Source: Spirochaetales bacterium (lineage in GTDB: Bacteria > Spirochaetota > Spirochaetia > CADAEX01). Taken from it: a stretch of DNA of 64,000 nt. Below the pieces are notes generated by a model, which ran no database searches, had not been told where the DNA came from, and was given only the letters and a program-made list of their open reading frames with translations. The translations under genes were made by a program, and so were the position numbers. The stretch spans positions 665 through 64,664 of the forward strand of contig JACKPD010000013.1 of assembly GCA_024233785.1 (NCBI GenBank), written 5' to 3'. Shown piece after piece: positions 5,666 through 49,514 of this stretch (positions within the stretch are counted from its first letter, which is position 1; the number at the start of each line of letters is the position of its first letter).

Positions 5666-6229
5666 ATGGATACAATAAAATATTTCGGAAAAGGGCCTGG
5701 ACTATACATAATGGCATCAGTCCTTTTTTTCCTTTTTGCAGCGATTATTTTCGCAATTTACAAATCATCAAAAAAAGAATATTTCTGGAGACTTTCTATT
5801 CCTGTCTTTTTTATTATGACGGTACTCGGTTTTATGGTAATAGCCATGGGTCTTCCAGTGAAAGGTGATGAAGTCGGCCCCGCAATTGTTCCCGAACTGT
5901 GGATAACAGGTATAATATTGTTAAGCGTTTTAATAATAATAAGAACACTGTTCGGTCTGGATGAAAAAGACCCCGGCTGGGGAAGGGTAGGAGTAGTCGG
6001 CGCTTTTCTCGCTTTTACAATACTATATCTCTATATGATAATTTATATCGGTTATTATATTTCAACATTAATCTATCTTTCAGTCAGTATATATTCTCTT
6101 TCCTACCGTGATATAAAGGTTATCGCGGGGCTTTCATTAGGATGGATTCTGGTTTCATATGTGGCTTTTTACAGAATCCTTTATGTTCCCCTTCCGAAAG
6201 GAATACTGATAGAACGGATATTCGGATAA
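5666..6229 (+). CDS. tctB: Tripartite tricarboxylate transporter small membrane subunit (TctB family)
   Basis: 187 aa with 4-5 hydrophobic helices, located between tctC and tctA. Confidence 0.75.
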   Translation: MDTIKYFGKGPGLYIMASVLFFLFAAIIFAIYKSSKKEYFWRLSIPVFFIMTVLGFMVIAMGLPVKGDEVGPAIVPELWITGIILLSVLIIIRTLFGLDEKDPGWGRVGVVGAFLAFTILYLYMIIYIGYYISTLIYLSVSIYSLSYRDIKVIAGLSLGWILVSYVAFYRILYVPLPKGILIERIFG

Positions 6230-36113: not shown

Positions 36114-37526
36114 ATGGCAGAAAAAATAAACGCGGATCTTCTTGTTGTCGGAGGAGGCCCCGGCGGATATACAGCGGCTTTCAGGGCAGCAGACCTGGGC
36201 CTTTCGGTAACACTGCTTGAAAAACAGGAGAGGCTTGGGGGCGTCTGCCTTAATGTCGGCTGCATTCCGTCGAAAACGTTACTCCATGCCGCTTCCGTTA
36301 TTGAGGATGCGGAAAAAATATCGTCATACGGTGTTAAGTACGGAAAGCCTGAAATAGATCTCGATGCGATGAGGCAGAACAAGGACACAGTAGTGAAAAA
36401 ACTCACCGACGGCCTTGAGCTGCTGTGCAATGCAAGGAAGATAAAGATTGTAAAGGGCGCCGGAAAATTCAAGGACAGCAGAACAGTTTCTGTTGAAGGA
36501 AACAGCGAAGTCGCCGAGATCGGTTTTAAAAACTGCATAATTGCCGCCGGCTCACGGCCTGTAAAGCTTCCGATATTCCCTGAAGATCCCGGGATATGGG
36601 ATTCCACAGACGCGCTTGAGGTAAAAGAGGTGCCGGGGAAGCTTCTTGTTGTAGGAGGGGGTATCATCGGCCTTGAAATGGCGACAGTCTACCACTCCCT
36701 CGGCTCTTCCGTTACTGTTGTCGAGATGCTTGACCAGATCATTCCCCCTGCAGACGCGGATGTCGTAAAGCCCCTTTTCAGGAAGCTTAAAAAATCCCTT
36801 GAGGCAATTCTTCTTGAAACAGAAATTGTCAAGGCTGAGAAGACCGGAAACTCTTTCACAGTTACAATGAAGGACAAAAAGGGAACTGAAAAAACAGCTG
36901 TTTACGACAGGATCCTTGTCGCTGTGGGAAGAAGGCCGAACACTGCCTCTGTCGAACCTGAAAAGGCAGGAATAGAAACTGAAAAAGGGTTTATCAAAGT
37001 CAATGACAGGATGCAGACCAGCGTAGATGGGATATACGCTATCGGCGACATCACGGGCAACCCGATGCTTGCACACAGGGCGTCTCACCAGGGCAAAATA
37101 GCGGCCGAAGTAATTTCAGGGTTAAAGTCCGCCTTTACGCCGATGACAATCCCGTCTGTAGCCTACACAAGCCCCGAGGTAGCGTGGATGGGCATAACTG
37201 AAAAGGATGCCGTGCGCGACAACATACCGTTTAAGAAAGGCGTTTTCCCATGGGCGGCCAGCGGCAGGGCCCTGAGTGCGGATAACGCTCTCGGCAGCAC
37301 AAAGGTACTCTTCGACCCTGAAACAGGAAGGATAATCGGCGCCGGCATTGCAGGCTATAACGCTGGCGAACTTATATCGGAGGCTGTCCTTGCCATGGAG
37401 ATGGGATGCGACGCCGAGGACATCGGCAGCACTGTTCATCCTCACCCGACACTGGCAGAAACCATAGCCTTCGCATCGGAAGCTGCTGCCGGCACTGTCA
37501 CGGATATCCTGCCCCCCAAAGCCTGA
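36114..37526 (+). CDS. lpdA: Dihydrolipoyl dehydrogenase E3
   Basis: GGGPGGY FAD motif, redox-active CLNVGCIPSK and C-terminal HPHPTLAE. Confidence 0.95.
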   Translation: MAEKINADLLVVGGGPGGYTAAFRAADLGLSVTLLEKQERLGGVCLNVGCIPSKTLLHAASVIEDAEKISSYGVKYGKPEIDLDAMRQNKDTVVKKLTDGLELLCNARKIKIVKGAGKFKDSRTVSVEGNSEVAEIGFKNCIIAAGSRPVKLPIFPEDPGIWDSTDALEVKEVPGKLLVVGGGIIGLEMATVYHSLGSSVTVVEMLDQIIPPADADVVKPLFRKLKKSLEAILLETEIVKAEKTGNSFTVTMKDKKGTEKTAVYDRILVAVGRRPNTASVEPEKAGIETEKGFIKVNDRMQTSVDGIYAIGDITGNPMLAHRASHQGKIAAEVISGLKSAFTPMTIPSVAYTSPEVAWMGITEKDAVRDNIPFKKGVFPWAASGRALSADNALGSTKVLFDPETGRIIGAGIAGYNAGELISEAVLAMEMGCDAEDIGSTVHPHPTLAETIAFASEAAAGTVTDILPPKA

Positions 37527-37644
37527 AAGAGCCCTGTAAGAAGGCCGTCTGACGGAAGCCCGGTTTTTCCTGCCGGGCGGCTTCAGGGATATTATTCACA
37601 AAACCATCCTTAAAATGCAGAAACAATAATACTGCGTTTTATAC

Positions 37645-37673
37645 TTGACTTCTCCTATCTTTTGATTTACAAT
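37645..37673 (+). promoter_or_regulatory. Sigma-70-type promoter of the Type I R-M operon
   Basis: TTGACT (37645-37650), a 17-nt spacer, then TACAAT (37668-37673). Confidence 0.55.
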
Positions 37674-37700
37674 ATACAGTAATAACATTTCTGTATATTG
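37670..37700. promoter_or_regulatory. 10-bp perfect inverted repeat overlapping the -10 box and the first start codon
   Basis: caatatacag (37670-37679) and ctgtatattg (37691-37700) with an 11-nt spacer. The left arm overlaps TACAAT and the right arm ends in the GTG start of the half-size hsdS. Confidence 0.4.
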
Positions 37701-38290
37701 TGGGGATTTGTTTGCATACAAAACTTAAAAACATTGCAACGGTGCAGATGGGATACTCATTCAGGTCCCGTCTCGAAGCCTCAGGAAGTGGGGCAATTGC
37801 GGTTATTCAGATGAAGGATCTGCTGGGTGACAACACGGTCGGCTGTGATGATTTGGTCAGGATTGATTTGGATGCCGTGAAAGAGCATCACCTCGCGCAA
37901 AGAGGCGATCTTGTATTCAGGTCCCGTGGGGCTCTGACTACGGCAGCGATTCTTCTTGAAGATCCGGGCAGGGCAGTTGTCGCCGCTCCTTTATTAAGAA
38001 TAAGAGTGAAAAAGCCGGACAAGGTTTTACCAGAGTATCTGAACTGGTACATCAGCCAGCGCGATGCCCAGATTTTTCTTACCAGCAGGGCCAAAGGCAC
38101 GGTTCAGAAAATGATCAGCAAGCAGGCGATAGAAGATCTGGAAGTGGTGCTGCCAGGTCTGGAAAAGCAAAAAAACATCCTGGATCTGGCATCACTGCTT
38201 GCACGGGAAAAAAAATTGCTTCAACAGATTTCAGATAAACGGGAACAATACATTTCATCAGTACTCATGCATTTTGCAAAAGGAGAATAA
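37700..38290 (+). CDS. hsdS: Type I R-M specificity subunit, half-size (single target-recognition domain)
   Basis: 196 aa with one TRD (KLKNIATVQMGYSFRS...) plus the conserved helical region LPGLEKQKNILDLASLLAREKKLLQQI. GTG start without an obvious SD. Confidence 0.75.
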   Translation: MGICLHTKLKNIATVQMGYSFRSRLEASGSGAIAVIQMKDLLGDNTVGCDDLVRIDLDAVKEHHLAQRGDLVFRSRGALTTAAILLEDPGRAVVAAPLLRIRVKKPDKVLPEYLNWYISQRDAQIFLTSRAKGTVQKMISKQAIEDLEVVLPGLEKQKNILDLASLLAREKKLLQQISDKREQYISSVLMHFAKGE

Positions 38291-38293
38291 AAC

Positions 38294-39858
<1,565 letters not shown>

Positions 39859-39862
<4 letters not shown>

Positions 39863-40710
39863 GTAACAAAGATATCGAAAGACAGTATCACCAGACATTT
39901 GAGGAACTTAAGAAAATTGGAGATAGCAATGCCGAATTTTGGTATGCGAGGGATATGCAGGTTACATTGGATTATTCCAGTTGGGACAAATTCAAGCGGG
40001 TAATACTAAAAGCAATCGCGGCTTGCGAAAACTCCGGTCAGACAGCCAGTAGCCATTTTTCCCAAGTGGGAAAAATGGTTCAGCTTGGATCCGGTAGTCA
40101 ACGTGAAATTGAGGATTACCGGCTCTCCCGCTACGCCTGCTATTTGATTGTACAGAATGGTGATCCCTCAAAGCCGGTTATAGCCAACGGACAGACCTAT
40201 TTTGCCATTCAGACCCGTCGACAGGAATTGGCCGACGACGAAGCCTTTCAGCGTTTGAAGGAAGATGAAAAACGCCTGTTTCTGCGTAATGAAATGAAGG
40301 AGCATAACAAGAAGCTCGTTGAAGCGGCCCAGCAGGCTGGAGTGGAGTCCAATCTGGATTTCGCCATCTTCCAGAACCACGGCTACAAAGGGCTTTACGG
40401 AGGACTTGATGCCAAGGGGATTCATGCCCGCAAAGGGTTGAAAAAGAGCCAGCAGATTCTGGATAACATGGGTAGCACTGAGATGGCCGCCAATCTCTTC
40501 CGAGCCACACAGACCGAAGAAAAACTCCGTCGGGAAAATATTCAGGGCAAAACCAGGGCCAATACAACCCATTTTGAAGTCGGAAAGAAAGTTCGAAAAA
40601 CCATTGAAGAACTGGGCGGCACCATGCCGGAAGACCTTCCAACACCGGATGAAGATTTGAAGAAGCTGGAAAAACGGACGCAAAAAAAGCTGGGATACTA
40701 CCACGAATGA
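39859..40710 (+). CDS. dinD: DNA-damage-inducible protein D homologue
   Basis: Long identical stretches to E. coli DinD as I remember it (LSRYACYL.VQNGDP.KPVIA.GQTYFAIQTRRQELADDEAF...EDEKRLFLRNE.KEHNK.LVEAAQQAGV...FAIFQNHGY.GLYGGLD). ATGA overlap with the hsdM stop. Confidence 0.85.
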
Positions 40711-40802
40711 ATATGGATAAACTCATATATTTTATAGGACCGCATAAACAAAATTCGCTGAAGCAATTATGGGCCGAGAAGCTCAGGGAGATTGAGAGGT
40801 GA
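40707..40802 (+). other. 31-codon mini-ORF carrying an hsdM C-terminal relic
   Basis: Encodes MNMDKLIYFIGPHKQNSLKQLWAEKLREIER*. Its ATG overlaps the dinD stop (ATGA) and its TGA overlaps the GTG start of the ORF6N gene (GTGA). The tail ...AEKLREIER resembles the HsdM tail ...MAGKLREIQR. Confidence 0.45.
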
Positions 40803-40806
40803 GTAA
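40778..40806 (+). repeat. Junction repeat J2
   Basis: gaagctcagggagattgagagGTGAgtaa. The first 16 nt are identical to J1, followed by 3 substitutions. Confidence 0.9.
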
Positions 40807-41695
40807 GGATAACGAAATCGTTTTATCAGATACCCTTCAAAAAATGATCTTTACCATTAGGGGGATCCAGGTGATGATCGATCGGGATTTGGCAGAGCTG
40901 TATCAAGTTGAAAATAAACGTCTCAATGAACAGGCCAAACGCAATATTACCCGATTTCCGGAATCTTTCAGATTTCAGCTTACGGATCAGGAAAAAAATG
41001 AACTGGTCGCAATTTGCGACCGGTTCGAGTCCTTGAAACATTCGACTGCAAATCCCTATGCATTCTCCGAACAGGGTGTATCCATGCTTTCTGCTGTTCT
41101 GCGTAGTGAAACTGCCATCAAGGTCAGTATTCAGATCATCAACGCCTTTGTTGATATGCGGCGATTCATTCAGAATAATGCCAATATTTTTACCAGACTG
41201 GATTCTGTGGAACGCCGTCAAATAGCTTTTGAATCAGAGACAGAAAAGAAGTTTGAAAAGGTGTTTCAAGCTCTCGGAGCAGGTGAGCCGCCTAAACAGG
41301 GCGTTTTTTATGATGGTCAGGTCTATGATGCCTATGCTTTTGTTGCTGACCTTATTCGCAAAGCAAAGAGCAGCCTCATTCTCATTGATAATTATGTTGA
41401 TGATTCGGTTCTGACTCTCCTCAGCAAGCGTAAAAATGGGGTCTCGGCAACCATCTACACAAAAGCTGTTTCCAGACAACTTGCACTGGACATCAAAAAA
41501 TATAATGAGCAATACTCACCCATCAAACTCGAAACGTTAGAAAAAGTTCACGACCGCTTTCTGATTATCGACGAAAAAGAGATTTACCACATTGGCGCTT
41601 CACTGAAAGACCTTGGTAAAAAATGGTTCGCCTTCTCTAAGTTTGAATCCGGGACTGTCGAAATGCTCAAAAAACTTGGAGGAACCCACGGATGA
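40799..41695 (+). CDS. ORF6N-domain protein with PLD-like (HxR-x4-D) C-terminal domain
   Basis: N-terminal IRGIQVMIDRDLAELYQVENKRLNEQAKRNITRFPESFRFQLT is the ORF6N/KilA-N-like DNA-binding domain. The C-terminal VHDRFLIIDEKEIYHIGASLKD resembles a PLD HKD motif with Lys replaced by Arg. Confidence 0.8.
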   Translation: MSKDNEIVLSDTLQKMIFTIRGIQVMIDRDLAELYQVENKRLNEQAKRNITRFPESFRFQLTDQEKNELVAICDRFESLKHSTANPYAFSEQGVSMLSAVLRSETAIKVSIQIINAFVDMRRFIQNNANIFTRLDSVERRQIAFESETEKKFEKVFQALGAGEPPKQGVFYDGQVYDAYAFVADLIRKAKSSLILIDNYVDDSVLTLLSKRKNGVSATIYTKAVSRQLALDIKKYNEQYSPIKLETLEKVHDRFLIIDEKEIYHIGASLKDLGKKWFAFSKFESGTVEMLKKLGGTHG

Positions 41696-41793
41696 ACACG
41701 AAAGTTAATGATGAATGTTCAGTGATGAGTGATGAATTAAAAAACAACTCAGCACTTCTCGCAGGTGCATGGCTCCAGGAGATTCAGCGATGA
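41692..41793 (+). other. 33-codon mini-ORF carrying an hsdM C-terminal relic
   Basis: Encodes MNTKVNDECSVMSDELKNNSALLAGAWLQEIQR*. Its ATG overlaps the ORF6N stop (ATGA) and its TGA overlaps the hsdS ATG (ATGA). Confidence 0.45.
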
Positions 41794-41795
41794 GT
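41773..41795 (+). repeat. Junction repeat J3
   Basis: ctccaggagattcagcgATGAgt. The 18 nt ggagattcagcgatgagt are identical to J1. Confidence 0.9.
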
Positions 41796-43025
41796 TTGAA
41801 GACAATAGACACTGCCTTTGAAGGTAATGCCATGCCAGTATTCAAAGAAGTCAAGTTGAAGGAGATTGTTACTGATAATTGTCTCGGGGGCAATTATCAG
41901 TGCGTTGAGTATGTTACACCACTTCCTGTAATAAAAATGGGCAACCTGGGTAGAGGAACAATAACTCTTGAAAAAATGGAGTATGTATCAGACGGAAAGA
42001 TCCTTTCTAATAGAGATGTACTCAAAAAAAAGGACATCCTCTTAAACACAAGAAATACACTCGATTTGGTCGGGAAAGTAGCTATGTGGCGAGGAGAACT
42101 CGAATATTCAGTGTTCAATTCAAACATAATGCGCATTACGTTCAGCACAAATGTTTTGAATGAATATATGAATTACTATTTCAATTCATATAGTGCATTG
42201 AAACAACTTAGATCGAGGGCGACAGGTACAACAAGCGTTGCTGCAATATATTGGAGGGATTGCCAAAATATAAGAATACCGCTCCCCTCACTGTCAGAGC
42301 AAAAAGCCATTGTCGCTCTTTTGTCTACTTGGGATATCGTCATAGAGAAAACCGAACGACTGGTTCAGACGAAGGAGCGGCAAAAGTTAGGTGAGCTTCA
42401 CTCTCGAATAAGCAGGAAAAAAGCTAACTCGACAATTGGCACTTTCGCCAAGCCTGTAGTTAGAAAGGTAGATAAACCAGAGGAATCCTACATTGCTTTA
42501 GGCATTAGAAGCCATTTCAAGGGAACATTCAAGAGACTCGTTGAAGATCCAAAAACCGTAAATATGGATTCGCTATTCAGGGTTAAAGAAAACGACTTGA
42601 TCGTTAATATAACCTTTGCATGGGAAGGTGCCATTGCGCTTGTGAAGAAAGAAGATGAGGAATGCTATGTCTCTCATCGTTTTCCGACATATGAAATAAA
42701 GAGGTCTAAGGCAGAGCCTTGTTTCATTAGGCAACTGATCATGTCGAGTCGGATGAAATACGACCTTTCAAATATTTCTCCCGGTGGTGCCGGACGCAAC
42801 AGAGTTCTTAACAAGAAAGATTTCTTGAAGATGCCAATATGGCTCCCAGATCTTGAGACCCAGAAAAATATCGGAGAATACCTTGGGGCAATTGATAATG
42901 AAATCGACCTTCTTAAACAGCTTGCAGAAAAATACAAAACCCAGAAACACGGCTTGATGCAGAAAATGCTTACCGGCGAATGGCGGATAAAACCGGAAAT
43001 CGTTAACCAATACATGGAGGCGTAA
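41790..43025 (+). CDS. hsdS: Type I R-M specificity subunit, full length (two TRDs)
   Basis: Two TRDs, each followed by the conserved motif LPSLSEQKAIVALL... / LPDLETQKNIGEYL.... Start set at ATG 41790 (ATGA coupling) rather than the track start 41769, which lies inside the hsdM-tail relic. Confidence 0.9.
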   Translation: MSLKTIDTAFEGNAMPVFKEVKLKEIVTDNCLGGNYQCVEYVTPLPVIKMGNLGRGTITLEKMEYVSDGKILSNRDVLKKKDILLNTRNTLDLVGKVAMWRGELEYSVFNSNIMRITFSTNVLNEYMNYYFNSYSALKQLRSRATGTTSVAAIYWRDCQNIRIPLPSLSEQKAIVALLSTWDIVIEKTERLVQTKERQKLGELHSRISRKKANSTIGTFAKPVVRKVDKPEESYIALGIRSHFKGTFKRLVEDPKTVNMDSLFRVKENDLIVNITFAWEGAIALVKKEDEECYVSHRFPTYEIKRSKAEPCFIRQLIMSSRMKYDLSNISPGGAGRNRVLNKKDFLKMPIWLPDLETQKNIGEYLGAIDNEIDLLKQLAEKYKTQKHGLMQKMLTGEWRIKPEIVNQYMEA

Positions 43026-43027
43026 TT

Positions 43028-43261
43028 ATGGCTAAAGGAAAAAATCAACACGTTGTAAAACATCCCGATGGATGGGCGGTAAAGGGCGAAGGTAACAGCA
43101 AAGCGACCAAAGTTACCCGCACACAGACGCAGGCCATTGAAAAGGCGGAGAACATCGCCAGAAACCAGAAGGCGGACACGAAAATTCATGGTGTGGATGG
43201 AAAGATCCGGGCAGGCAACAGCTACGGAAACGACCCGTGCCCACCTAAGGATAATAAGTAA
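43028..43261 (+). CDS. DUF2188-family small protein
   Basis: 77 aa. HVVKHPDGWAVKGEGNSKATKVTRTQTQAIEKAENIARNQKADTKIHGVDGKIR matches my memory of DUF2188. It starts 2 nt after the hsdS stop. Confidence 0.7.
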   Translation: MAKGKNQHVVKHPDGWAVKGEGNSKATKVTRTQTQAIEKAENIARNQKADTKIHGVDGKIRAGNSYGNDPCPPKDNK

Positions 43262-43268
43262 GGAGAAA

Positions 43269-44255
43269 ATGCCAATGAGTATGCGAAGCAGACGAATTGG
43301 TTCAATAAAAAACGAACTACTTAAAAAGTCTCGGGAAGCAGCTCTTGCGGCTGTCCAGATATTCAATAACCCAAATATCAGCTTTAAATCGGAATCCTAT
43401 GTAGTTCTGATGATTATTGCCTGGACTTACTTATTGCATGCTTACTACCGTAGTAAGAAAATCGAATACAGATACTTCGAAAAACTGGGTCAACGACGGA
43501 AGTTCGATACCACTAAAAATGGTGCATATAAGTACTGGGAACTCGAACGAAGTTTAAATGATTCAAAATCGCCTATCGACAAAGATACATCAAACAATCT
43601 GCGGTTTCTGATTGGTTTGCGCCATGAAATCGAACACCAGATGACCAGCAGGATCGATGATATTCTGAGCGCCCGCTTTCAAGCTTGTTGCCTAAACTAT
43701 AACGAATACATAAAGAAACTTTTCGGTGAAGATCTTGGAATTGAAAAGCACCTCTCTTTCAGCCTGCAATTTTCAACAATCTCAACAGAACAAAAAGAAT
43801 TGCTGGAGGATCATCCTGAGTTGCCTGCTAATATTCAGGGCTACATTCAAAGTTTTGATGCTAAATTATCTGATGAAGAATTCTCCAATCCTCATTATGC
43901 CTATCGAATACTCTTTATTCCAAAGACGGCCAATCGTATAGGCCAAGCAGACCGTGTGATCGAATTTGTGAAGAGTGATTCTCCTTTAGCTGAAGTTGTA
44001 AATAAAGAATATGCGGTAATCAAAGAGACCGAGAAAAGGAAGTTTCGGCCAAAACAGGTTGTGGATTTAATGAAGAAGGAGGGTTATCCCGGTTTTTCAA
44101 TCCACTACCATACACAGCTTTGGAAATCTTTGGATGCAAAGAAAACTGATAAAGGTTACGGTACGGTTGTAGCTGGAAAGGATTGGCTCTGGTATGAGTG
44201 TTGGATTGATGCGGTACGTGAGTATTGTCTTAAAAACAAGGAGCAATACTCATGA
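43269..44255 (+). CDS. DUF3644-like protein with R-x4-H (HEPN-like) motif
   Basis: 328 aa from ATG 43269, preceded by AAGGAG. N-terminal KKSREAALAAVQIFNNPNISFKSESYVVLMIIAWTYLLHAY is DUF3644-like as I recall it. RHEIEH is at codons 118-123 (43620-43637). The longer track ORF (43137) overlaps DUF2188 and is rejected. Confidence 0.7.
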   Translation: MPMSMRSRRIGSIKNELLKKSREAALAAVQIFNNPNISFKSESYVVLMIIAWTYLLHAYYRSKKIEYRYFEKLGQRRKFDTTKNGAYKYWELERSLNDSKSPIDKDTSNNLRFLIGLRHEIEHQMTSRIDDILSARFQACCLNYNEYIKKLFGEDLGIEKHLSFSLQFSTISTEQKELLEDHPELPANIQGYIQSFDAKLSDEEFSNPHYAYRILFIPKTANRIGQADRVIEFVKSDSPLAEVVNKEYAVIKETEKRKFRPKQVVDLMKKEGYPGFSIHYHTQLWKSLDAKKTDKGYGTVVAGKDWLWYECWIDAVREYCLKNKEQYS

Positions 44256-45586
44256 CCTCCGAATCCCAAAACATCGAGTGGAAACAATCCTGGCATGATG
44301 ACTACCTGAAATGGATCTGCGGGTTTGCCAATTCGCAGGGCGGACGAATTTTTATAGGTAAGGATAATGCTGGCAACGTCACCGGAGTGAAGAATGCCAG
44401 GAAGCTGCTGCAAGATTTACCGAACAAGATTCGCGACCAGTTGGGGTTGATGCCGCATATCAATCTGCAGATAGAAAACGGCAAAGCCTATCTGGAAATT
44501 ATTGTGGAGCCGTCGACGGTGCCGATTTCATTGCGTGGTTCCTATTACTGGCGGTCAGGTTCGGTAAAGCAGGAACTGAAAGGGCATGCTCTGACAGAAT
44601 TCCTTCTCAACAAGATGGGCAGGACCTGGGATAGGGTGATTGAGGAGAAAGCGACGCTGGATGACATCGACGATGCGACCATTGAACTATTTAAAAAAGA
44701 AGCGGTTACAGCCGGACGTCTGCCGGATATTTCAGGACTTTCTTCAGAAGAATTATTGAGAAAGTTGCACCTGCTTACTGAGAAAGGTCTGACCAATGCG
44801 GCAATCGTTCTTTTTGGTAAAGATCCAGGAGAATTTTATCCCAACCTGTTTGTGAAAATTGGCCGGTTTGGACTCAATATGGTGGATATGCGCTTTCAGG
44901 AGGTATGCGAGGGCAATGTATTTCAGCTCCTTCGTGGTGTGATGGAGCAGCTGGAAAAGAAATTCCTTATCAAACCAGTACGATTTGAAGGTTTTCGTCG
45001 AATTGAAGAACTGGAATATCCGGTTCCGGCATTGCGTGAAATGCTGCTCAATGCGCTGGTGCACCGCAACTACATGGGCAGCATGACTCAACTCCGGGTC
45101 ATGGATGATCGGCTTTCGTTGTGGAATGCCGGCACCCTGCCGCTCGAATTAACTGTTGAAAAACTATTTCAGACGCATAAGTCAATCCCCCGTAACCCGC
45201 TCATAGCAGAGGTTTGCTATCGGGTCGGCTATATTGATTCCTGGGGACGGGGAATTGAAAAAATCACCGATGCATGCAGGCATGCAGGACTGCCTGAACC
45301 TGTAATTGAAGAAAATTCAGGAGGTGTGGCGGTTGAGCTTCTGAAAAATGAGGTGAAAACGCCGGTCGAAACGCGGGTGAAAACGCCGGTCGAAACACGG
45401 GTGAAAACGCCAGAGGCCATTCTTCAGGTATTAAAAAATGATGCTTCGTTAACACTGGCAGAGGTAGGTTATCATATTGGAAAATCAGTCAGTGCGGTAG
45501 AACGTGCCGCCAAAAAATTGAGAGATCAGGGAAGATTGAAATATGTTGGCCCTCAAAAAGGCGGTCACTGGGAGGTGCGGGAATAA
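44252..45586 (+). CDS. AlbA_2 (Schlafen-like) + HATPase_c_4 + C-terminal wHTH protein (often mis-annotated as RecG-like)
   Basis: N-terminal ESQNIEWKQSWHDDYLKWICGFANSQGGRIFIGKDNAGNVTGV is the AlbA_2/divergent AAA_4 pattern. Central LREMLLNALVHRNY is HATPase_c_4-like. The C-terminal LTLAEVGYHIGKSVSAVERAAKKLRDQGRL is a wHTH. ATGA overlap with the upstream gene. Confidence 0.8.
   Translation: MTSESQNIEWKQSWHDDYLKWICGFANSQGGRIFIGKDNAGNVTGVKNARKLLQDLPNKIRDQLGLMPHINLQIENGKAYLEIIVEPSTVPISLRGSYYWRSGSVKQELKGHALTEFLLNKMGRTWDRVIEEKATLDDIDDATIELFKKEAVTAGRLPDISGLSSEELLRKLHLLTEKGLTNAAIVLFGKDPGEFYPNLFVKIGRFGLNMVDMRFQEVCEGNVFQLLRGVMEQLEKKFLIKPVRFEGFRRIEELEYPVPALREMLLNALVHRNYMGSMTQLRVMDDRLSLWNAGTLPLELTVEKLFQTHKSIPRNPLIAEVCYRVGYIDSWGRGIEKITDACRHAGLPEPVIEENSGGVAVELLKNEVKTPVETRVKTPVETRVKTPEAILQVLKNDASLTLAEVGYHIGKSVSAVERAAKKLRDQGRLKYVGPQKGGHWEVRE
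45353..45411 (+). repeat. In-frame 24-bp tandem repeat (about 2.5 copies) inside the AlbA_2 gene
   Basis: gtgaaaacgccggtcgaaacgcgg / gtgaaaacgccggtcgaaacacgg / gtgaaaacgcc, encoding VKTPVETR VKTPVETR VKTP. Confidence 0.95.
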
Positions 45587-45588
45587 TT

Positions 45589-48500
45589 ATGTATGATTTT
45601 GCAACTAACGAAAAACTGACAAGCCAGATACCGGCCCTGCAATTACTGATTACGATGGGCTATGAATACATCTCTCCGGAAGAAGCACTTGCAGAGCGTC
45701 AGGGGCGCTGTTCCAATGTCCTGCTGGAAAATATTCTGCGGACTCAGCTTAAAGAAATAAACAGCATTCGCTACAAAGGAAGTGAGTATCTCTTCAGCGA
45801 GGAGAATATTCAGTCGGCAATCCAGAAGCTGAAAAACATCAAATACGATGGACTGCTTAAGACCAACGAAGCCATTTACGATCTGATCACACTTGGGACG
45901 GCCATGGAGCAGACCATTGAAGGTGACTCGAAAAGCTTCAATATGAACTATGTCGACTGGAAGAATCCCGGCCGCAATAGATTTCATGTAACAGTAGAAT
46001 ACAGTGTTGAGAGGGCACGGAGTACAGAAACAGTCCGTCCTGACATTGTCCTGTTTGTCAATGGTATTCCATTTTGTGTGATGGAATGTAAAGCGCCGCA
46101 GATAGAGGTTGAACAGGCTGTTTCGCAATCGATCAGAAACCAGAGTGATGACTATATTCCCAAATTGTTCATTTATAGTCAAATGGTTTTGGCTTTGAAT
46201 AAAAACAGCGCCATATATGCTACAACCGGAACATCTGCAAAATTCTGGAGTGTTTGGAAAGAGCCTCTGATGGATAACGGGCAGCGTGAGTTTGAAAAAC
46301 TTGCAGCCGTGGTTAACAAACCGCTTGATGAGGCTGAAATTGCCTGTATTTCAAAAACACTTAATGTTAAACCTGAAATCTTTGGCTACAGCAGACTTGT
46401 AACCGCGCAGGACAAGGCTCTGTTCTGTCTCTGCCGCCCCGAAAGGCTTCTGGAGTTGGCATGGAAATTTACTGTATTTGATGGGGGTGTGAAAAAGATT
46501 GCCCGATATCAGCAGTATTTCGTCATCAAGTCCACACTGAAAAGGGTAAAACATTTTGACGTAACAGGTTCACGTAAAGGGGGCGTGATCTGGCATACTC
46601 AAGGTTCGGGGAAGTCCCTGACCATGGTGATGCTGGCCAGAAACCTGGCTTTGGATACTGAAATCCTGAATCCGCGAATCGTTCTTGTAACAGACCGTGA
46701 TGATCTGGATAAACAGTTGGGGAACACTTTTACCGCTTGCGGTCTTGAGGCGAATCGGGCAACATCGGGGAGAAACCTGCTGGAGCTGGTCGCTGAGAAG
46801 AAATCAGGTATTATCACAACCCTCATTCATAAGTTTGACAAGATGTATGCGATTGAGAAATATCGGGATGAGTCGCCAGATATCTTTATTTTAGTTGATG
46901 AGAGTCACCGGACCCAATTTGGTTCTTTTTCTGCAAGGATGAGACAGGTGTTTCCACATGCCTGTTATTTGGGATTTACCGGTACTCCCCTTTTGAAGAA
47001 GGAAAAGAATAACTTCGCCAAATTTGGTGAATTGGTTGAACCTCATTATTCCATTACTCAGGCTGTTGAAGACGGAGCTGTTGTGCCGCTCTTGTATGAG
47101 GGCAGGCATGTAGAGATGACTCAAAACAAAGAAGCTGTTGATCTATGGTTTGAACGGCATACGCAAGGGTTGAGCAGGGAACAGCAGGCGGACCTGAAAC
47201 GGAAATACGCACGGGCTGAAATGCTAAACAAGGCAGAACAGGTTATATACATGAGAGCCTTTGATATAAGTGAGCATTTCCAGTCCAACTGGCAGGGAAC
47301 AGGCTTCAAGGCCCAACTGGTGGCTCCGAATAAAGCTTCTGCCATTAAATATAACGCGTTCCTGAATGAAATTGGTAAGGTAAGTTCCGATGTTGTTATT
47401 TCACCTCCGGATGTACGTGAAGGTTATGAAGAAACCGATGATGAGCCAACCGATGAGGTTGTGAAATTCTGGCAAAAGATGATGAAGCGCTATGGAAGTG
47501 AAGAGGAATACACAAAGCAGCTGATCAATCAATTTAAACATGGGAATACACCGGATATCCTCATTGTCGTCAGTAAATTGTTGACAGGTTTCGATGCACC
47601 CCGAAATGCGGTTCTTTACTTATGCAGATTGCTTAAAGAGCATACACTGCTCCAGGCAATTGCGCGGGTCAATCGCATTTATGAAAACAAGGAGTTCGGT
47701 TTTATTGTCGATTATTCAAATGTTCTTGGTGAACTTGACAGGGCGCTCACCATGTACAGTGCGTTTGAAGGATTTGATGAATCCGACCTTGTCGGAACCC
47801 TTGCGTCCATTGACAGTGAAATTGAAAAGCTGCCCATCCGGTATTCCAGTCTTTGGGATTTATTTAAAACAGTTAAGTATTTATACGACGAAGAAGCCTA
47901 TGAACTATTTCTTGCCGATGATGAAATCAGGGAGGAATTCTATTACCGTCTTTCAGAGTTTGGGAAAAATCTCGCTATTGCTCTATCTTCTGAAAAATTC
48001 CTGAACCAAACCGATGTGAAAACGTTGTCCGGATACAAGGCAGACCTTCTGAAGTTTCAATCACTTAAAGCATCTGTCAAGTTAAGATATGCAGAAGCAA
48101 TTGATTACCGGGATTACGAGCCAAAGATTAAAAAGCTGCTGGATACCCACATACAAGCCAGTGAAGTTATTCAATTGAATGAACCGGTCAATATCTTTGA
48201 TGATAAATCGTTTATGTTAATCAAAGAAGAACGTGGAGTTTACGGAACCGGTAAAACTACCGGATCGAAAGCTGATACGATAGCTCATGCTACAAAGAAA
48301 GTTATCACCGAAAGGATAGATGAAGACCCTGCGTTCTACGAGAAGTTTTCCAAACTGATTCAGCAGGCGATCGAAGATTTCAGGGCAAAAAGGATATCCG
48401 ATCTGGATTATCTGAACAAGGTTGTGGACATTCGCAATAGGGTTGTTGGCAAGGTCCATGATGATATACCGGATAAACTTTCCGGTAATGAAGATGCGAT

Positions 48501-48789
48501 GGCCTATTTTGGAGTACTTAAACCTTTCCTGGAAGAACATGAACTTGGTGAAAACGATCTTTTATCCGCCTCGGCAGATACCGCAATAGCTATTCATGGT
48601 ATCCTGAAAAAATACAGGAAAGTTCATTTCTGGGATGATTATGACGCTCAAAAGCAAGCGGTTAACGAGATTGATGATTATTTTTATGATGAACTCAAGA
48701 CAGTAAGAGGCATTGAATTATCACTTGATCAGATGGATAAAATCATCGAAAAGGTACTGCAGGTTGCAAAACACAGGAGTTATAATTGA
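45589..48789 (+). CDS. hsdR: Type I restriction enzyme R subunit
   Basis: 1066 aa. PD-(D/E)xK nuclease (RPDIVLFVNG...MECK), SF2 helicase motifs (TQGSGKS, VDESHRTQ, GFTGTP, QAIARVNR) and a C-terminal helical domain. Confidence 0.95.
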   Translation: MYDFATNEKLTSQIPALQLLITMGYEYISPEEALAERQGRCSNVLLENILRTQLKEINSIRYKGSEYLFSEENIQSAIQKLKNIKYDGLLKTNEAIYDLITLGTAMEQTIEGDSKSFNMNYVDWKNPGRNRFHVTVEYSVERARSTETVRPDIVLFVNGIPFCVMECKAPQIEVEQAVSQSIRNQSDDYIPKLFIYSQMVLALNKNSAIYATTGTSAKFWSVWKEPLMDNGQREFEKLAAVVNKPLDEAEIACISKTLNVKPEIFGYSRLVTAQDKALFCLCRPERLLELAWKFTVFDGGVKKIARYQQYFVIKSTLKRVKHFDVTGSRKGGVIWHTQGSGKSLTMVMLARNLALDTEILNPRIVLVTDRDDLDKQLGNTFTACGLEANRATSGRNLLELVAEKKSGIITTLIHKFDKMYAIEKYRDESPDIFILVDESHRTQFGSFSARMRQVFPHACYLGFTGTPLLKKEKNNFAKFGELVEPHYSITQAVEDGAVVPLLYEGRHVEMTQNKEAVDLWFERHTQGLSREQQADLKRKYARAEMLNKAEQVIYMRAFDISEHFQSNWQGTGFKAQLVAPNKASAIKYNAFLNEIGKVSSDVVISPPDVREGYEETDDEPTDEVVKFWQKMMKRYGSEEEYTKQLINQFKHGNTPDILIVVSKLLTGFDAPRNAVLYLCRLLKEHTLLQAIARVNRIYENKEFGFIVDYSNVLGELDRALTMYSAFEGFDESDLVGTLASIDSEIEKLPIRYSSLWDLFKTVKYLYDEEAYELFLADDEIREEFYYRLSEFGKNLAIALSSEKFLNQTDVKTLSGYKADLLKFQSLKASVKLRYAEAIDYRDYEPKIKKLLDTHIQASEVIQLNEPVNIFDDKSFMLIKEERGVYGTGKTTGSKADTIAHATKKVITERIDEDPAFYEKFSKLIQQAIEDFRAKRISDLDYLNKVVDIRNRVVGKVHDDIPDKLSGNEDAMAYFGVLKPFLEEHELGENDLLSASADTAIAIHGILKKYRKVHFWDDYDAQKQAVNEIDDYFYDELKTVRGIELSLDQMDKIIEKVLQVAKHRSYN

Positions 48790-49514
48790 TGGCGGGATTA
48801 ATCCATATCATTAAACACTCTGTTATTTATGGGCAAAAAAGGATTGAATTCAGTTTGCTGTATTGTGATAGAAAAATGATCGAAATTGCAGTTCATCCTG
48901 ATAGTGCTGTTATTGTCAAAGTTCCTTTGCAAACAGATATCCTGCTAATAGAGAAAAAGATTATTAAAAAAGCCCGGTGGATTCTCAGTCAATTGAATTA
49001 TTTCAGGCAGTTTAATCCAAAGACACCTGATCGTTGTTATGTGAATGGTGAGACACATTTATATCTTGGGAAACAATACCGCTTAAAGTTAATCAAGGGA
49101 TCAGAAAATTCCGTCAAATTATCCCGCGGCTTTTTCCATATCACCAGCCAAAGCGAGCCGACTCCCGATACAGCCAAAAATCTTTTAAATCAATGGTACC
49201 TGGAAAAGGCACAGCTGCAATTTTCAGAAAGTATTGATCGCTGCTGGAAGGATTTCAATGATTTCGGAATTTGTAAGCCAAAATTATTGATTATGCGTAT
49301 GCAAAAAAGATGGGGAAGCCTTTCGGATAAAGGAACTGTCACCCTCAATACAGACCTTGTCAGGGCACCTAAAGCATGTATTGACTATGTTGTTACGCAT
49401 GAGCTGTGTCACCTGAAATATCATAATCATGGCACTGAATTTTATAAACTCCTCGAATCTGTCCTCCCGGGATGGGAAAAGGTAAAACACAAACTTGAGC
49501 TTAGTATGGCGTGA
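48789..49514 (+). CDS. DUF45/YgjP-like M48-type zinc metallopeptidase
   Basis: HELCHLKYHNH (HExxH) near the C-terminus. RWGS...G.V.LN..L motif. The start overlaps the hsdR stop (TGATG). Confidence 0.85.
   Translation: MAGLIHIIKHSVIYGQKRIEFSLLYCDRKMIEIAVHPDSAVIVKVPLQTDILLIEKKIIKKARWILSQLNYFRQFNPKTPDRCYVNGETHLYLGKQYRLKLIKGSENSVKLSRGFFHITSQSEPTPDTAKNLLNQWYLEKAQLQFSESIDRCWKDFNDFGICKPKLLIMRMQKRWGSLSDKGTVTLNTDLVRAPKACIDYVVTHELCHLKYHNHGTEFYKLLESVLPGWEKVKHKLELSMA

Follow-up and report, generated by a model that had tools for sequence, protein, structure and literature searches.

The 64,000-nucleotide window analysed here (contig JACKPD010000013.1 of the Spirochaetales bacterium assembly GCA_024233785.1; all coordinates refer to the window and its + strand) contains a Type I restriction-modification (R-M) operon in which three genes are inserted between hsdS and hsdR, at positions 43028-45586. 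They encode a DUF2188 protein, a DUF3644 protein of the HEPN type and a prokaryotic Schlafen protein (pSlfn). This gap, referred to below as slot 2, is probably occupied by a stack of separately assorting, known defence genes in a swap-prone slot and not by a three-part system. It was found that the trio is not a conserved system and that its genes assort independently, since each gene occurs without the other two. The initial annotation, which was made from the sequence alone, had regarded the trio as a defence system without a described counterpart. However, each gene is already catalogued: PDC-S16 and PDC-S19 in PADLOC for the DUF2188 and DUF3644 proteins, the EC042_2821 HEPN and HEC-08 families for the latter, and the HisKinase-HTH class for the pSlfn.

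In order to evaluate the co-occurrence of the three genes, two sets of genome loci were used. The DUF3644 set comprised 80 loci of bacteria and archaea with orthologues of 61-87 % identity, in which iterated profiles were run on all open reading frames (ORFs). The Schlafen set comprised 82 loci with orthologues of 47-90 % identity, of which 60 were judgeable for hsdR and 49 had at least 1.5 kb of upstream sequence. DUF2188 was detected by the iterated profiles in none of the 80 DUF3644 loci. A Schlafen paralogue was present in 16 of them, located 5' of hsdM, in the gap that separates hsdM from hsdS, or downstream; it directly followed DUF3644 only in L009, L036 and L045. In the 49 Schlafen loci, DUF2188 was found 12 times and DUF3644 twice. 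Five architectures were observed in which DUF2188 is accompanied by neither DUF3644 nor the Schlafen gene. Apart from the window, only L081 showed the complete trio.

The context of DUF3644 was classified in the 48 loci where the gene is flanked by 5 kb or more on either side. The gene lies between M/S and R in 19 and beside R-M-type genes in 18, and no R-M gene is nearby in the remaining 11. A plain, tight hsdS-DUF3644-hsdR arrangement was found in ten loci of the set. In a different R-M-type context (L001-L004, L010, L011, L015-L017 and L023) the DUF3644 orthologue is located downstream of a fused methyltransferase gene of about 3.4 kb, mostly with a gap of about 1.2 kb between the two, and in five of these loci a Schlafen-family gene lies just upstream of the methyltransferase.

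These counts bear directly on the system proposed in the initial annotation, in which a DUF2188 partner or antitoxin, a HEPN effector and a Schlafen/ATPase sensor would work as a single integrated system of abortive infection, with the Type I enzyme either restraining it or being monitored by it, as in the case of PrrC. The tight packing with overlapping genes, the same gene order in L081, the position between hsdS and hsdR matching that of prrC, and the embedding of DUF3644 in or next to R-M-type genes in 37 of the 48 well-flanked loci are all in line with such a system. It is nevertheless considered very improbable, because DUF2188 is missing from every DUF3644 locus of the set and DUF3644 from nearly all Schlafen loci, while DUF3644 is found alone between hsdS and hsdR and, unlike PrrC, also away from R-M genes. 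Moreover, the Schlafen protein has its own catalytic motif and the DUF3644 protein is devoid of a PrrC-type ABC-ATPase.

The genes around slot 2 represent one conserved Type I lineage, with the order half-hsdS, hsdM, slot 1, hsdS, slot 2, hsdR and a gene for a YgjP-like peptidase. This was established by comparing the window with seven loci (L081, L082, L085, L092, L133, L163 and L170). In all seven, the half-hsdS product was 71-82 % identical to that of the window, HsdM 87-90 % and HsdR 82-88 %. The full-length HsdS was only 30-38 % identical among the backbone loci, as expected for variable target-recognition domains (TRDs). Full-length matches of 76-79 % identity to the YgjP-like protein were found in L081, L085, L092 and L133, and the match in L170 covered 29 % of the protein at 68 % identity. 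The gene follows hsdR in 19 of the 22 related loci in which this could be judged. The YgjP-like metallopeptidase is thus a conserved backbone accessory of this lineage.

Because the same backbone carries differing content between hsdS and hsdR, this gap is a slot whose cargo of defence genes is interchangeable, and the gap between hsdM and hsdS (slot 1, positions 39859-41695) behaves alike. Slot 2 of the backbone and other loci is empty in some cases and is otherwise occupied by CBASS of different types (SMODS/AGS_C with SLATT 2TM, and SAVED-HNH with a cyclase), a Thoeris-type TIR gene, PDC-S06, PDC-S39 (DUF7380 with DUF4209), GmrSD-like or Fic genes, or the gene of an unannotated 1180-aa protein. 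In related backbones, slot 1 was found to be empty or to contain other Bro-N genes or ORF6N together with Fic (L082, L163 and L170); the DinD gene present in the window is missing from L081, L085 and L092. PDC-S models come from the work of Payne et al. (2024, bioRxiv 10.1101/2024.01.29.577857), who used "guilt-by-embedding" in operons of the BREX, DISARM and Type I R-M systems to obtain single-gene phage-defence candidates. The window is one filling of this published "embedded defence" phenomenon, and the earlier statement that defence-type genes are embedded in its Type I operon is supported.

A protein of about 1180 aa, without a Pfam or PADLOC match, is encoded directly upstream of the Schlafen gene in L094 (2792-6334), L104, L131 and L175 (394-3939). 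In L175 its stop codon overlaps the Schlafen start. It is possibly an uncatalogued embedded defence gene.

Slot 2 of the window is headed by the DUF2188 gene (43028-43261, 77 aa). Its product matches the Pfam family with an E-value of 3.1e-21 and the PDC-S16 model of PADLOC (PDLC04941) with 2.7e-35, over profile positions 1-74 of 75. The protein is small and basic, with a conserved GNDPCPPKD tail at the C-terminus and a beta-beta-beta-alpha-beta core in the predicted structure. A search against PDB sequences returned zero matches, and the comparison of the model with PDB folds gave no meaningful match. The matches among viral folds were limited to small, uncharacterised proteins of phages, one phage protein that contains DUF2188, and DUF1508 at a weak level, with no functional lead. 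DUF2188 orthologues are 79-95 % identical across phyla. The conservation at the DNA level is confined to the ORF and ends with it, so that a conserved flanking recombination site, which had been considered, is unsupported.

It was observed that DUF2188 orthologues directly precede a range of unrelated cargo. In L163-L167 the gene lies 5' of TIR_2, two ThsB genes, a TIR/LD_cluster2 gene and Fic; in L168 and L169, 5' of patatin and a SMODS cyclase; in L170 and L171, 5' of HAD with a kinase or HAD with a SNF2 helicase. In seven loci (L090, L092, L105, L112 and L127-L129) it is followed by PDC-S06, a 703-aa AAA_13 ATPase. A deleted form of PDC-S06 occupies this place in L095, L096 and L098, where a 252-aa in-frame fusion joins the first ~100 and the last ~150 residues; judged from these reading frames, the PDC-S06 cargo is decaying while the DUF2188 and Schlafen genes remain intact. 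In L135, DUF2188 was found without any called cargo. L172 contains two DUF2188 genes (789-1022 and 5916-6167) whose products share only 36 % identity; they head two different effectors, the PDC-S06 ATPase and the DUF3644 HEPN protein, and both retain the C-terminal HGNDPCPPK(D/N)KK tail.

The possibility that DUF2188 is a plain part of the R-M backbone was rejected. In L168, a locus of another Type I family, the DUF2188 protein is 86 % identical to that of the window, in contrast to 54 % for HsdM and 38 % for HsdR; furthermore, the gene is located away from hsdS in L170-L174 and is missing from many backbone loci. In L168, a Vibrio parahaemolyticus contig, the Type I operon with DUF2188, patatin and SMODS (CBASS) directly follows TniB/TniQ-TnsD genes, and this operon is apparently the cargo of a Tn7-like transposon. 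In the literature, DUF2188 has been recorded with CapH/CapP-regulated operons, in a paper that cites Burroughs & Aravind 2020 and, as cited there, that work is the origin of the link between DUF2188 and defence. DUF2188 has also been termed a "putative effector" within a Thoeris island, and was shown adjoining the Pa011 CBASS operon.

The second gene of slot 2 encodes the DUF3644 protein. It was recognized by the Pfam profile PF12358 with 205.4 bits (gathering cut-off 27.6; E-value 7.4e-61) over residues 16-199, covering profile positions 1-182 of 183, and by the PDC-S19 model PDLC04948 with 6.5e-167 over residues 3-327, covering positions 1-324 of 325. All PADLOC matches of this protein were to PDC-S19 models. 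The translation confirmed the R-x4-H motif RHEIEH at residues 118-123 (43620-43637). In 40 orthologues with 60-91 % identity, the R and the H of this motif never vary, and the QMT that follows is invariant or nearly so. Beyond C138, the sole invariant cysteine of the alignment is C318. Anantharaman et al. (2013, PMC3710099) assigned DUF3644 to the HEPN superfamily as EC042_2821, a family that "occurs in R-M system operons". Its profile match and motif place the protein of the window in the HEPN superfamily, in the DUF3644/EC042_2821 family, and the HEPN-like character assigned to it in the initial annotation, with a conserved R-x4-H, agrees with this literature assignment.

Two further reports concern related proteins. 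HEC-08, a DUF3644 protein, defends against phage, and mutation of the histidine of its Rx4-6H motif abolishes the protection. Ishtar comprises HEPN proteins (DUF4145 or DUF3644) that clear the plasmid RP4 (bioRxiv 10.64898/2026.07.06.735840).

The AlphaFold (AF2) model of the DUF3644 protein was of moderate quality, with a mean predicted local distance difference test score (pLDDT) of 64.8 and values of ~70-85 in the helical N-terminal domain. The only PDB matches with a template-modelling (TM) score above 0.5 (0.54-0.64, root-mean-square deviation 4-5 A, with non-significant E-values) were all HEPN proteins, namely the toxins 2hsb, HepT (6m6w/7bxo) and SO_3166 (5yep), and 8xdj. The comparison of the DUF3644 profile with PDB sequences gave chance-level matches only. 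The C-terminal domain of about 125 residues has no Pfam match and is alpha/beta in the model, in which it looks like a helix-helix-hairpin-helix, winged-helix-like unit.

The third gene (44252-45586, 444 aa) encodes a pSlfn of the HisKinase-HTH class. SLFN_AlbA_2 (PF04326) was matched with 50 bits against a cut-off of 25.3 (E-value 5.3e-13), which supports the earlier identification of AlbA_2 as the Schlafen domain, and HATPase_c_4 with 74.6 bits against a cut-off of 26 (6.5e-21). The winged helix-turn-helix (wHTH) was just sub-threshold (HTH_24, 20.7 bits against 21.9, E-value 3e-4), and most orthologues have precomputed PF13412/PF08279 matches. The other domain assignments of the initial annotation, DUF2188, DUF3644, AlbA_2 and HATPase_c_4, were all confirmed by Pfam. 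The protein therefore consists of an AlbA_2 RNase domain, a GHKL-like HATPase_c_4 domain, a repeat linker and a probable wHTH. The linker is encoded by a tandem repeat of 24 nt x 2.5 (45352-45411; TRF, 97 % matches) that gives VKTPVETR repeats. The orthologues vary in length, mostly between 433 and 472 aa, and this variation suggests that the linker expands and contracts.

The Schlafen motif E-x4-E-x-K is present as ESQNIEWK at residues 4-11 (44261-44284), matching the Ex4(E/D)xK catalytic motif of pSlfn proteins (Taboada et al. 2025, bioRxiv 10.1101/2025.07.24.666596). Across 31 sequences, among them paralogues with only 26-30 % identity, the conservation of E4, E9 and K11 reaches 90 % or more. 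E263, N267 and H271 are invariant in the alignment and would correspond to the N-box of GHKL proteins. The sole relative in the PDB was 3lmm (2.4e-9). Proteins combining Schlafen, a minimal His kinase and a wHTH are widespread next to BREX core genes (PMC12839542), and HisKinase-HTH is the second commonest of 55 pSlfn architectures, with 19.2 % of 5,930 proteins (Taboada et al. 2025).

Since the E-x4-E-x-K motif is intact and conserved, the Schlafen protein would more likely serve as an RNase effector, the second of the locus, than as the nucleic-acid sensor or regulator proposed in the initial annotation. Alternatively, it could act mainly as a DNA-binding controller of hsdR or of the operon. 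This would agree with its probable C-terminal wHTH, with its position next to hsdR in 32 of the 60 judgeable loci (in 10 others hsdR lies further downstream), with database entries named, for instance, "transcriptional regulator" or "putative DNA binding domain-containing protein", and with the fact that defence phenotypes have been reported for pSlfn architectures other than HisKinase-HTH (bioRxiv 10.1101/2025.07.24.666596). Such a role appears doubtful, because the strict conservation of the catalytic residues, even in distant paralogues, would hardly be expected of a pure regulator, 18 of the 60 orthologue loci have no hsdR downstream, and the architecture is common in BREX loci.

Based on these observations, we infer what the enzymes would do, what would trigger them and how abortive infection would follow. 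Slot 2 would hold three single-gene modules, DUF2188, HEPN and Schlafen, none of which needs the others. The HEPN protein would be a latent RNase acting through R118 and H123. By analogy with HEC-08 and Ishtar, its C-terminal domain may sense an invader-derived cue, upon which RNA would be cut, leading to abortive infection by phage or to plasmid loss. The Schlafen protein may act as a second, tRNA-directed RNase through E4, E9 and K11, under the regulation of its GHKL-like ATP-binding domain and the wHTH. All three genes would be expressed from the R-M operon transcript, as the tight spacing and overlaps indicate, and would accompany and back up restriction. The R-M complex would not need to hold either RNase in the PrrC manner. 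Given that many DUF3644 orthologues lie outside R-M operons, control of this kind would not be obligatory, but it may apply to embedded copies.

Several points weigh against a reading of the three genes as separate modules with these functions. The pSlfn proteins with reported defence and tRNA cleavage are of other architectures only, namely DUF262-Slfn and Ig-like Slfn5 (bioRxiv 10.1101/2025.07.24.666596). The moderate quality of the DUF3644 model is a further point, as are the Foldseek E-values against the PDB, all of which were non-significant (none below 0.001). With regard to gene order, L081 has the trio in the identical order, with DUF3644 and Schlafen proteins 89 % and 72 % identical to those of the window. 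In L172-L174, a DUF2188 gene (83 % identical to that of the window) lies immediately before a DUF3644 gene of 89 % identity. Rather than following hsdS, this pair is located downstream of a Lactamase_B and a Schlafen gene, and a second, divergent DUF2188 gene heads the PDC-S06 gene there. As the adjacency persists despite the changed position, part of the arrangement is probably passed on together, and the HEPN protein of this sublineage could be modulated by DUF2188. Finally, DUF3644 and a Schlafen paralogue are neighbours in L009, L036, L045 and the BREX locus L176, a count that stands without a background rate.

DUF2188 and DUF3644 may thus constitute a two-gene cassette that moves as a unit in the sublineage of the window, with DUF2188 as a regulator, chaperone or antidote of the effector that follows. 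The pairing in the window, L081 and L172-L174 argues for this, together with the constant location of DUF2188 directly 5' of cargo, its high identity in L168 despite the divergent hsdM and hsdR, and the literature that ties it to defence operons. As an explanation of the locus this is unlikely. The 80 more distant DUF3644 loci lack DUF2188, which implies that the HEPN protein is viable without it, and DUF2188 proteins of at least 80 % identity precede TIR, patatin/CBASS and ABC-ATPase genes, which argues against a specific antitoxin. L135, with no called cargo, and the absence of a functional clue from the fold searches add to this. The role of dedicated HEPN partner or antitoxin that had been given to DUF2188 is for the same reasons not upheld.

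In a different and likewise unlikely interpretation, DUF2188 would be the shared "cassette-head" of many unrelated abortive-infection effectors embedded after hsdS (HEPN, ABC-ATPase, TIR/Thoeris and patatin-CBASS), acting as a common regulator or adaptor and not as a stand-alone defence gene. For example, effector expression or activation might depend, via DUF2188, on how the R-M complex stands or on a phage cue that all effectors share. The window, if this is true, would exemplify a generic interface through which effectors can be plugged into Type I operons.

At the level of the operon, the ORF listing showed one tightly packed gene array from 37.7 to 49.5 kb; ORFs were read with their translations and junctions were read directly. 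As had been described, hsdS is separated by 2 nt from the 77-aa ORF and this by 7 nt from a 328-aa ORF, the Schlafen gene starts in an ATGA overlap (44252-44255), and it ends 2 nt before hsdR (TAA-tt-ATG). The start of the DUF3644 gene was revised. A GGAG (43262-43265) is located 9 nt before the ATG at 43275 and only 3 nt before that at 43269. Since this spacing is better for the former, and since the homologues are mostly 326 aa long, the true start is probably 43275, giving a 326-aa protein (43275-44255; 328 aa from 43269) and a gap of 13 nt after DUF2188.

Co-transcription of the three genes with the R-M operon, which had been stated as a necessity, is plausible from the spacing, but proof was not provided by the promoter and terminator scans, whose results were at chance level (22 found against 20.6 expected, and 15 against 12, respectively). 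The best promoter-like site on the + strand (37645-37673) is just 5' of the half-hsdS and is weak evidence. It could also be supposed that the three ORFs are non-functional remnants or chance housekeeping genes. This is barely credible, considering the intact frames with ribosome-binding sites, the 75-95 % protein identity across phyla together with the invariant catalytic motifs, which indicates purifying selection, and the repeated occurrence of these families among defence genes.

The remaining genes of the operon were identified as follows. The first gene is a half-size hsdS (37700-38290, 196 aa) with one TRD (Pfam Methylase_S; PADLOC Specificity_I, 1.9e-22). It is followed by hsdM (38294-39862), the Type I methyltransferase gene (N6_Mtase 3.1e-101, HsdM_N, TIGR00497). 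The cargo of slot 1 comprises a DinD/Bro-N protein (39859-40710; NF008573 DinD 2.1e-141), corresponding to PDC-S13 (5.8e-123), and an ORF6N-domain protein (40799-41695; ORF6N 5.6e-29), corresponding to PDC-S05 (1.2e-124). The full-length hsdS (41769-43025, 418 aa), with two TRDs (Methylase_S in two stretches; Specificity_I 4.6e-47), forms the left border of slot 2. The right border is hsdR (45589-48789), encoding the Type I restriction subunit (HSDR_N, SWI2_SNF2, T1R_D3-like; TIGR00348 3.1e-143). The YgjP-like (DUF45) metallopeptidase gene (48786-49514; PF01863 7.3e-53, no PADLOC model) overlaps the hsdR stop codon.

The operon starts 174 nt after a pyruvate-dehydrogenase E3 gene (36114-37526). 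The GC content is 0.49-0.52 at the operon start (37000-40000) and ~0.39-0.43 from 41 kb on and in much of the window, with an exception of 0.45-0.47 over 44-47 kb. This pattern is consistent with a horizontally acquired island having parts of differing origin.

The locus thus presents known kinds of genes in a new copy and not a novel system; the earlier domain-level annotation was correct. The families, their defence association and the embedding habit have already been published, and PADLOC would flag the locus. In different genomes, the slot of this one Type I lineage holds HEPN, Schlafen, CBASS, Thoeris, GmrSD-like, Fic and ABC-ATPase genes. Such a swap-prone slot offers a convenient natural setting in which embedded defences can be compared. 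What keeps the locus of interest is the tight juxtaposition of the Schlafen gene and hsdR, and the repeated appearance of one DUF2188 orthologue in front of unrelated effector cassettes.

Among the known systems, PrrC is an anticodon nuclease held by the Type I R-M complex EcoprrI, and it consists of an N-terminal ABC-ATPase and a C-terminal HEPN anticodon nuclease domain. The window resembles it in that hsdS and hsdR of a Type I operon enclose the gene of a HEPN-type RNase, putative in the window. In contrast to PrrC, the DUF3644 protein of the window has no ATPase domain according to Pfam. PrrC is also almost exclusively R-M-embedded (Payne et al. 2024, bioRxiv 10.1101/2024.01.29.577857), whereas members of the DUF3644 orthogroup also occur outside Type I operons, as the 11 loci without R-M genes demonstrate. 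A HEPN-MNT type II toxin-antitoxin pair was considered and rejected, since Pfam detected no MNT domain in the neighbouring genes.

Ishtar (ist1/ist2) resembles the DUF3644 protein in being a monogenic HEPN protein with a C-terminal alpha/beta domain, encoded near defence genes; its proteins are of ~165-260 aa, compared with 326 aa in the window. Orthology with Ishtar, an idea derived from Acinetobacter orthologue loci, was rejected, as neither RHEIEH nor QIFNNP occurs in Table S3 of the Ishtar report and the profile comparison (hhalign) with an A. baumannii Ishtar gave a probability of only 0.2. HEC-08 shares the N-terminal DUF3644 HEPN domain, the structural neighbour SO_3166 (5yep) and the character of a single-gene defence embedded in another system. 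HEC-08 differs in its zinc-finger/zinc-ribbon-like C-terminal domains; the C-terminal domain of the window protein is not cysteine-rich, and no Cys/His cluster was found in residues 200-326, either in the sequence or among the invariant columns. The host systems differ too, HEC-08 being embedded in Hma and the window protein in a Type I R-M operon. The EC042_2821 family (PMC3710099) has the same Pfam domain, the conserved Rx4-6H and the occurrence in R-M operons. Its prototype is fused to a restriction endonuclease domain, a wHTH or Zn-ribbons, whereas the protein of the window has the alpha/beta C-terminal domain described above.

The Schlafen protein has, with its probable wHTH, the same domain order as the HisKinase-HTH pSlfn proteins, the Ex4(E/D)xK motif and a location beside the core genes of a restriction-type system. 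The class has been described mainly for BREX and defence islands, while the gene of the window adjoins hsdR of a Type I operon. With respect to PADLOC, the DUF2188 and DUF3644 proteins gave near full-length hidden Markov model matches to PDC-S16 and PDC-S19 and follow the same embedding logic. The two are separate single-gene candidates in PADLOC and adjacent in the window, and the same catalogue also covers the DinD (PDC-S13) and ORF6N (PDC-S05) genes of this operon.

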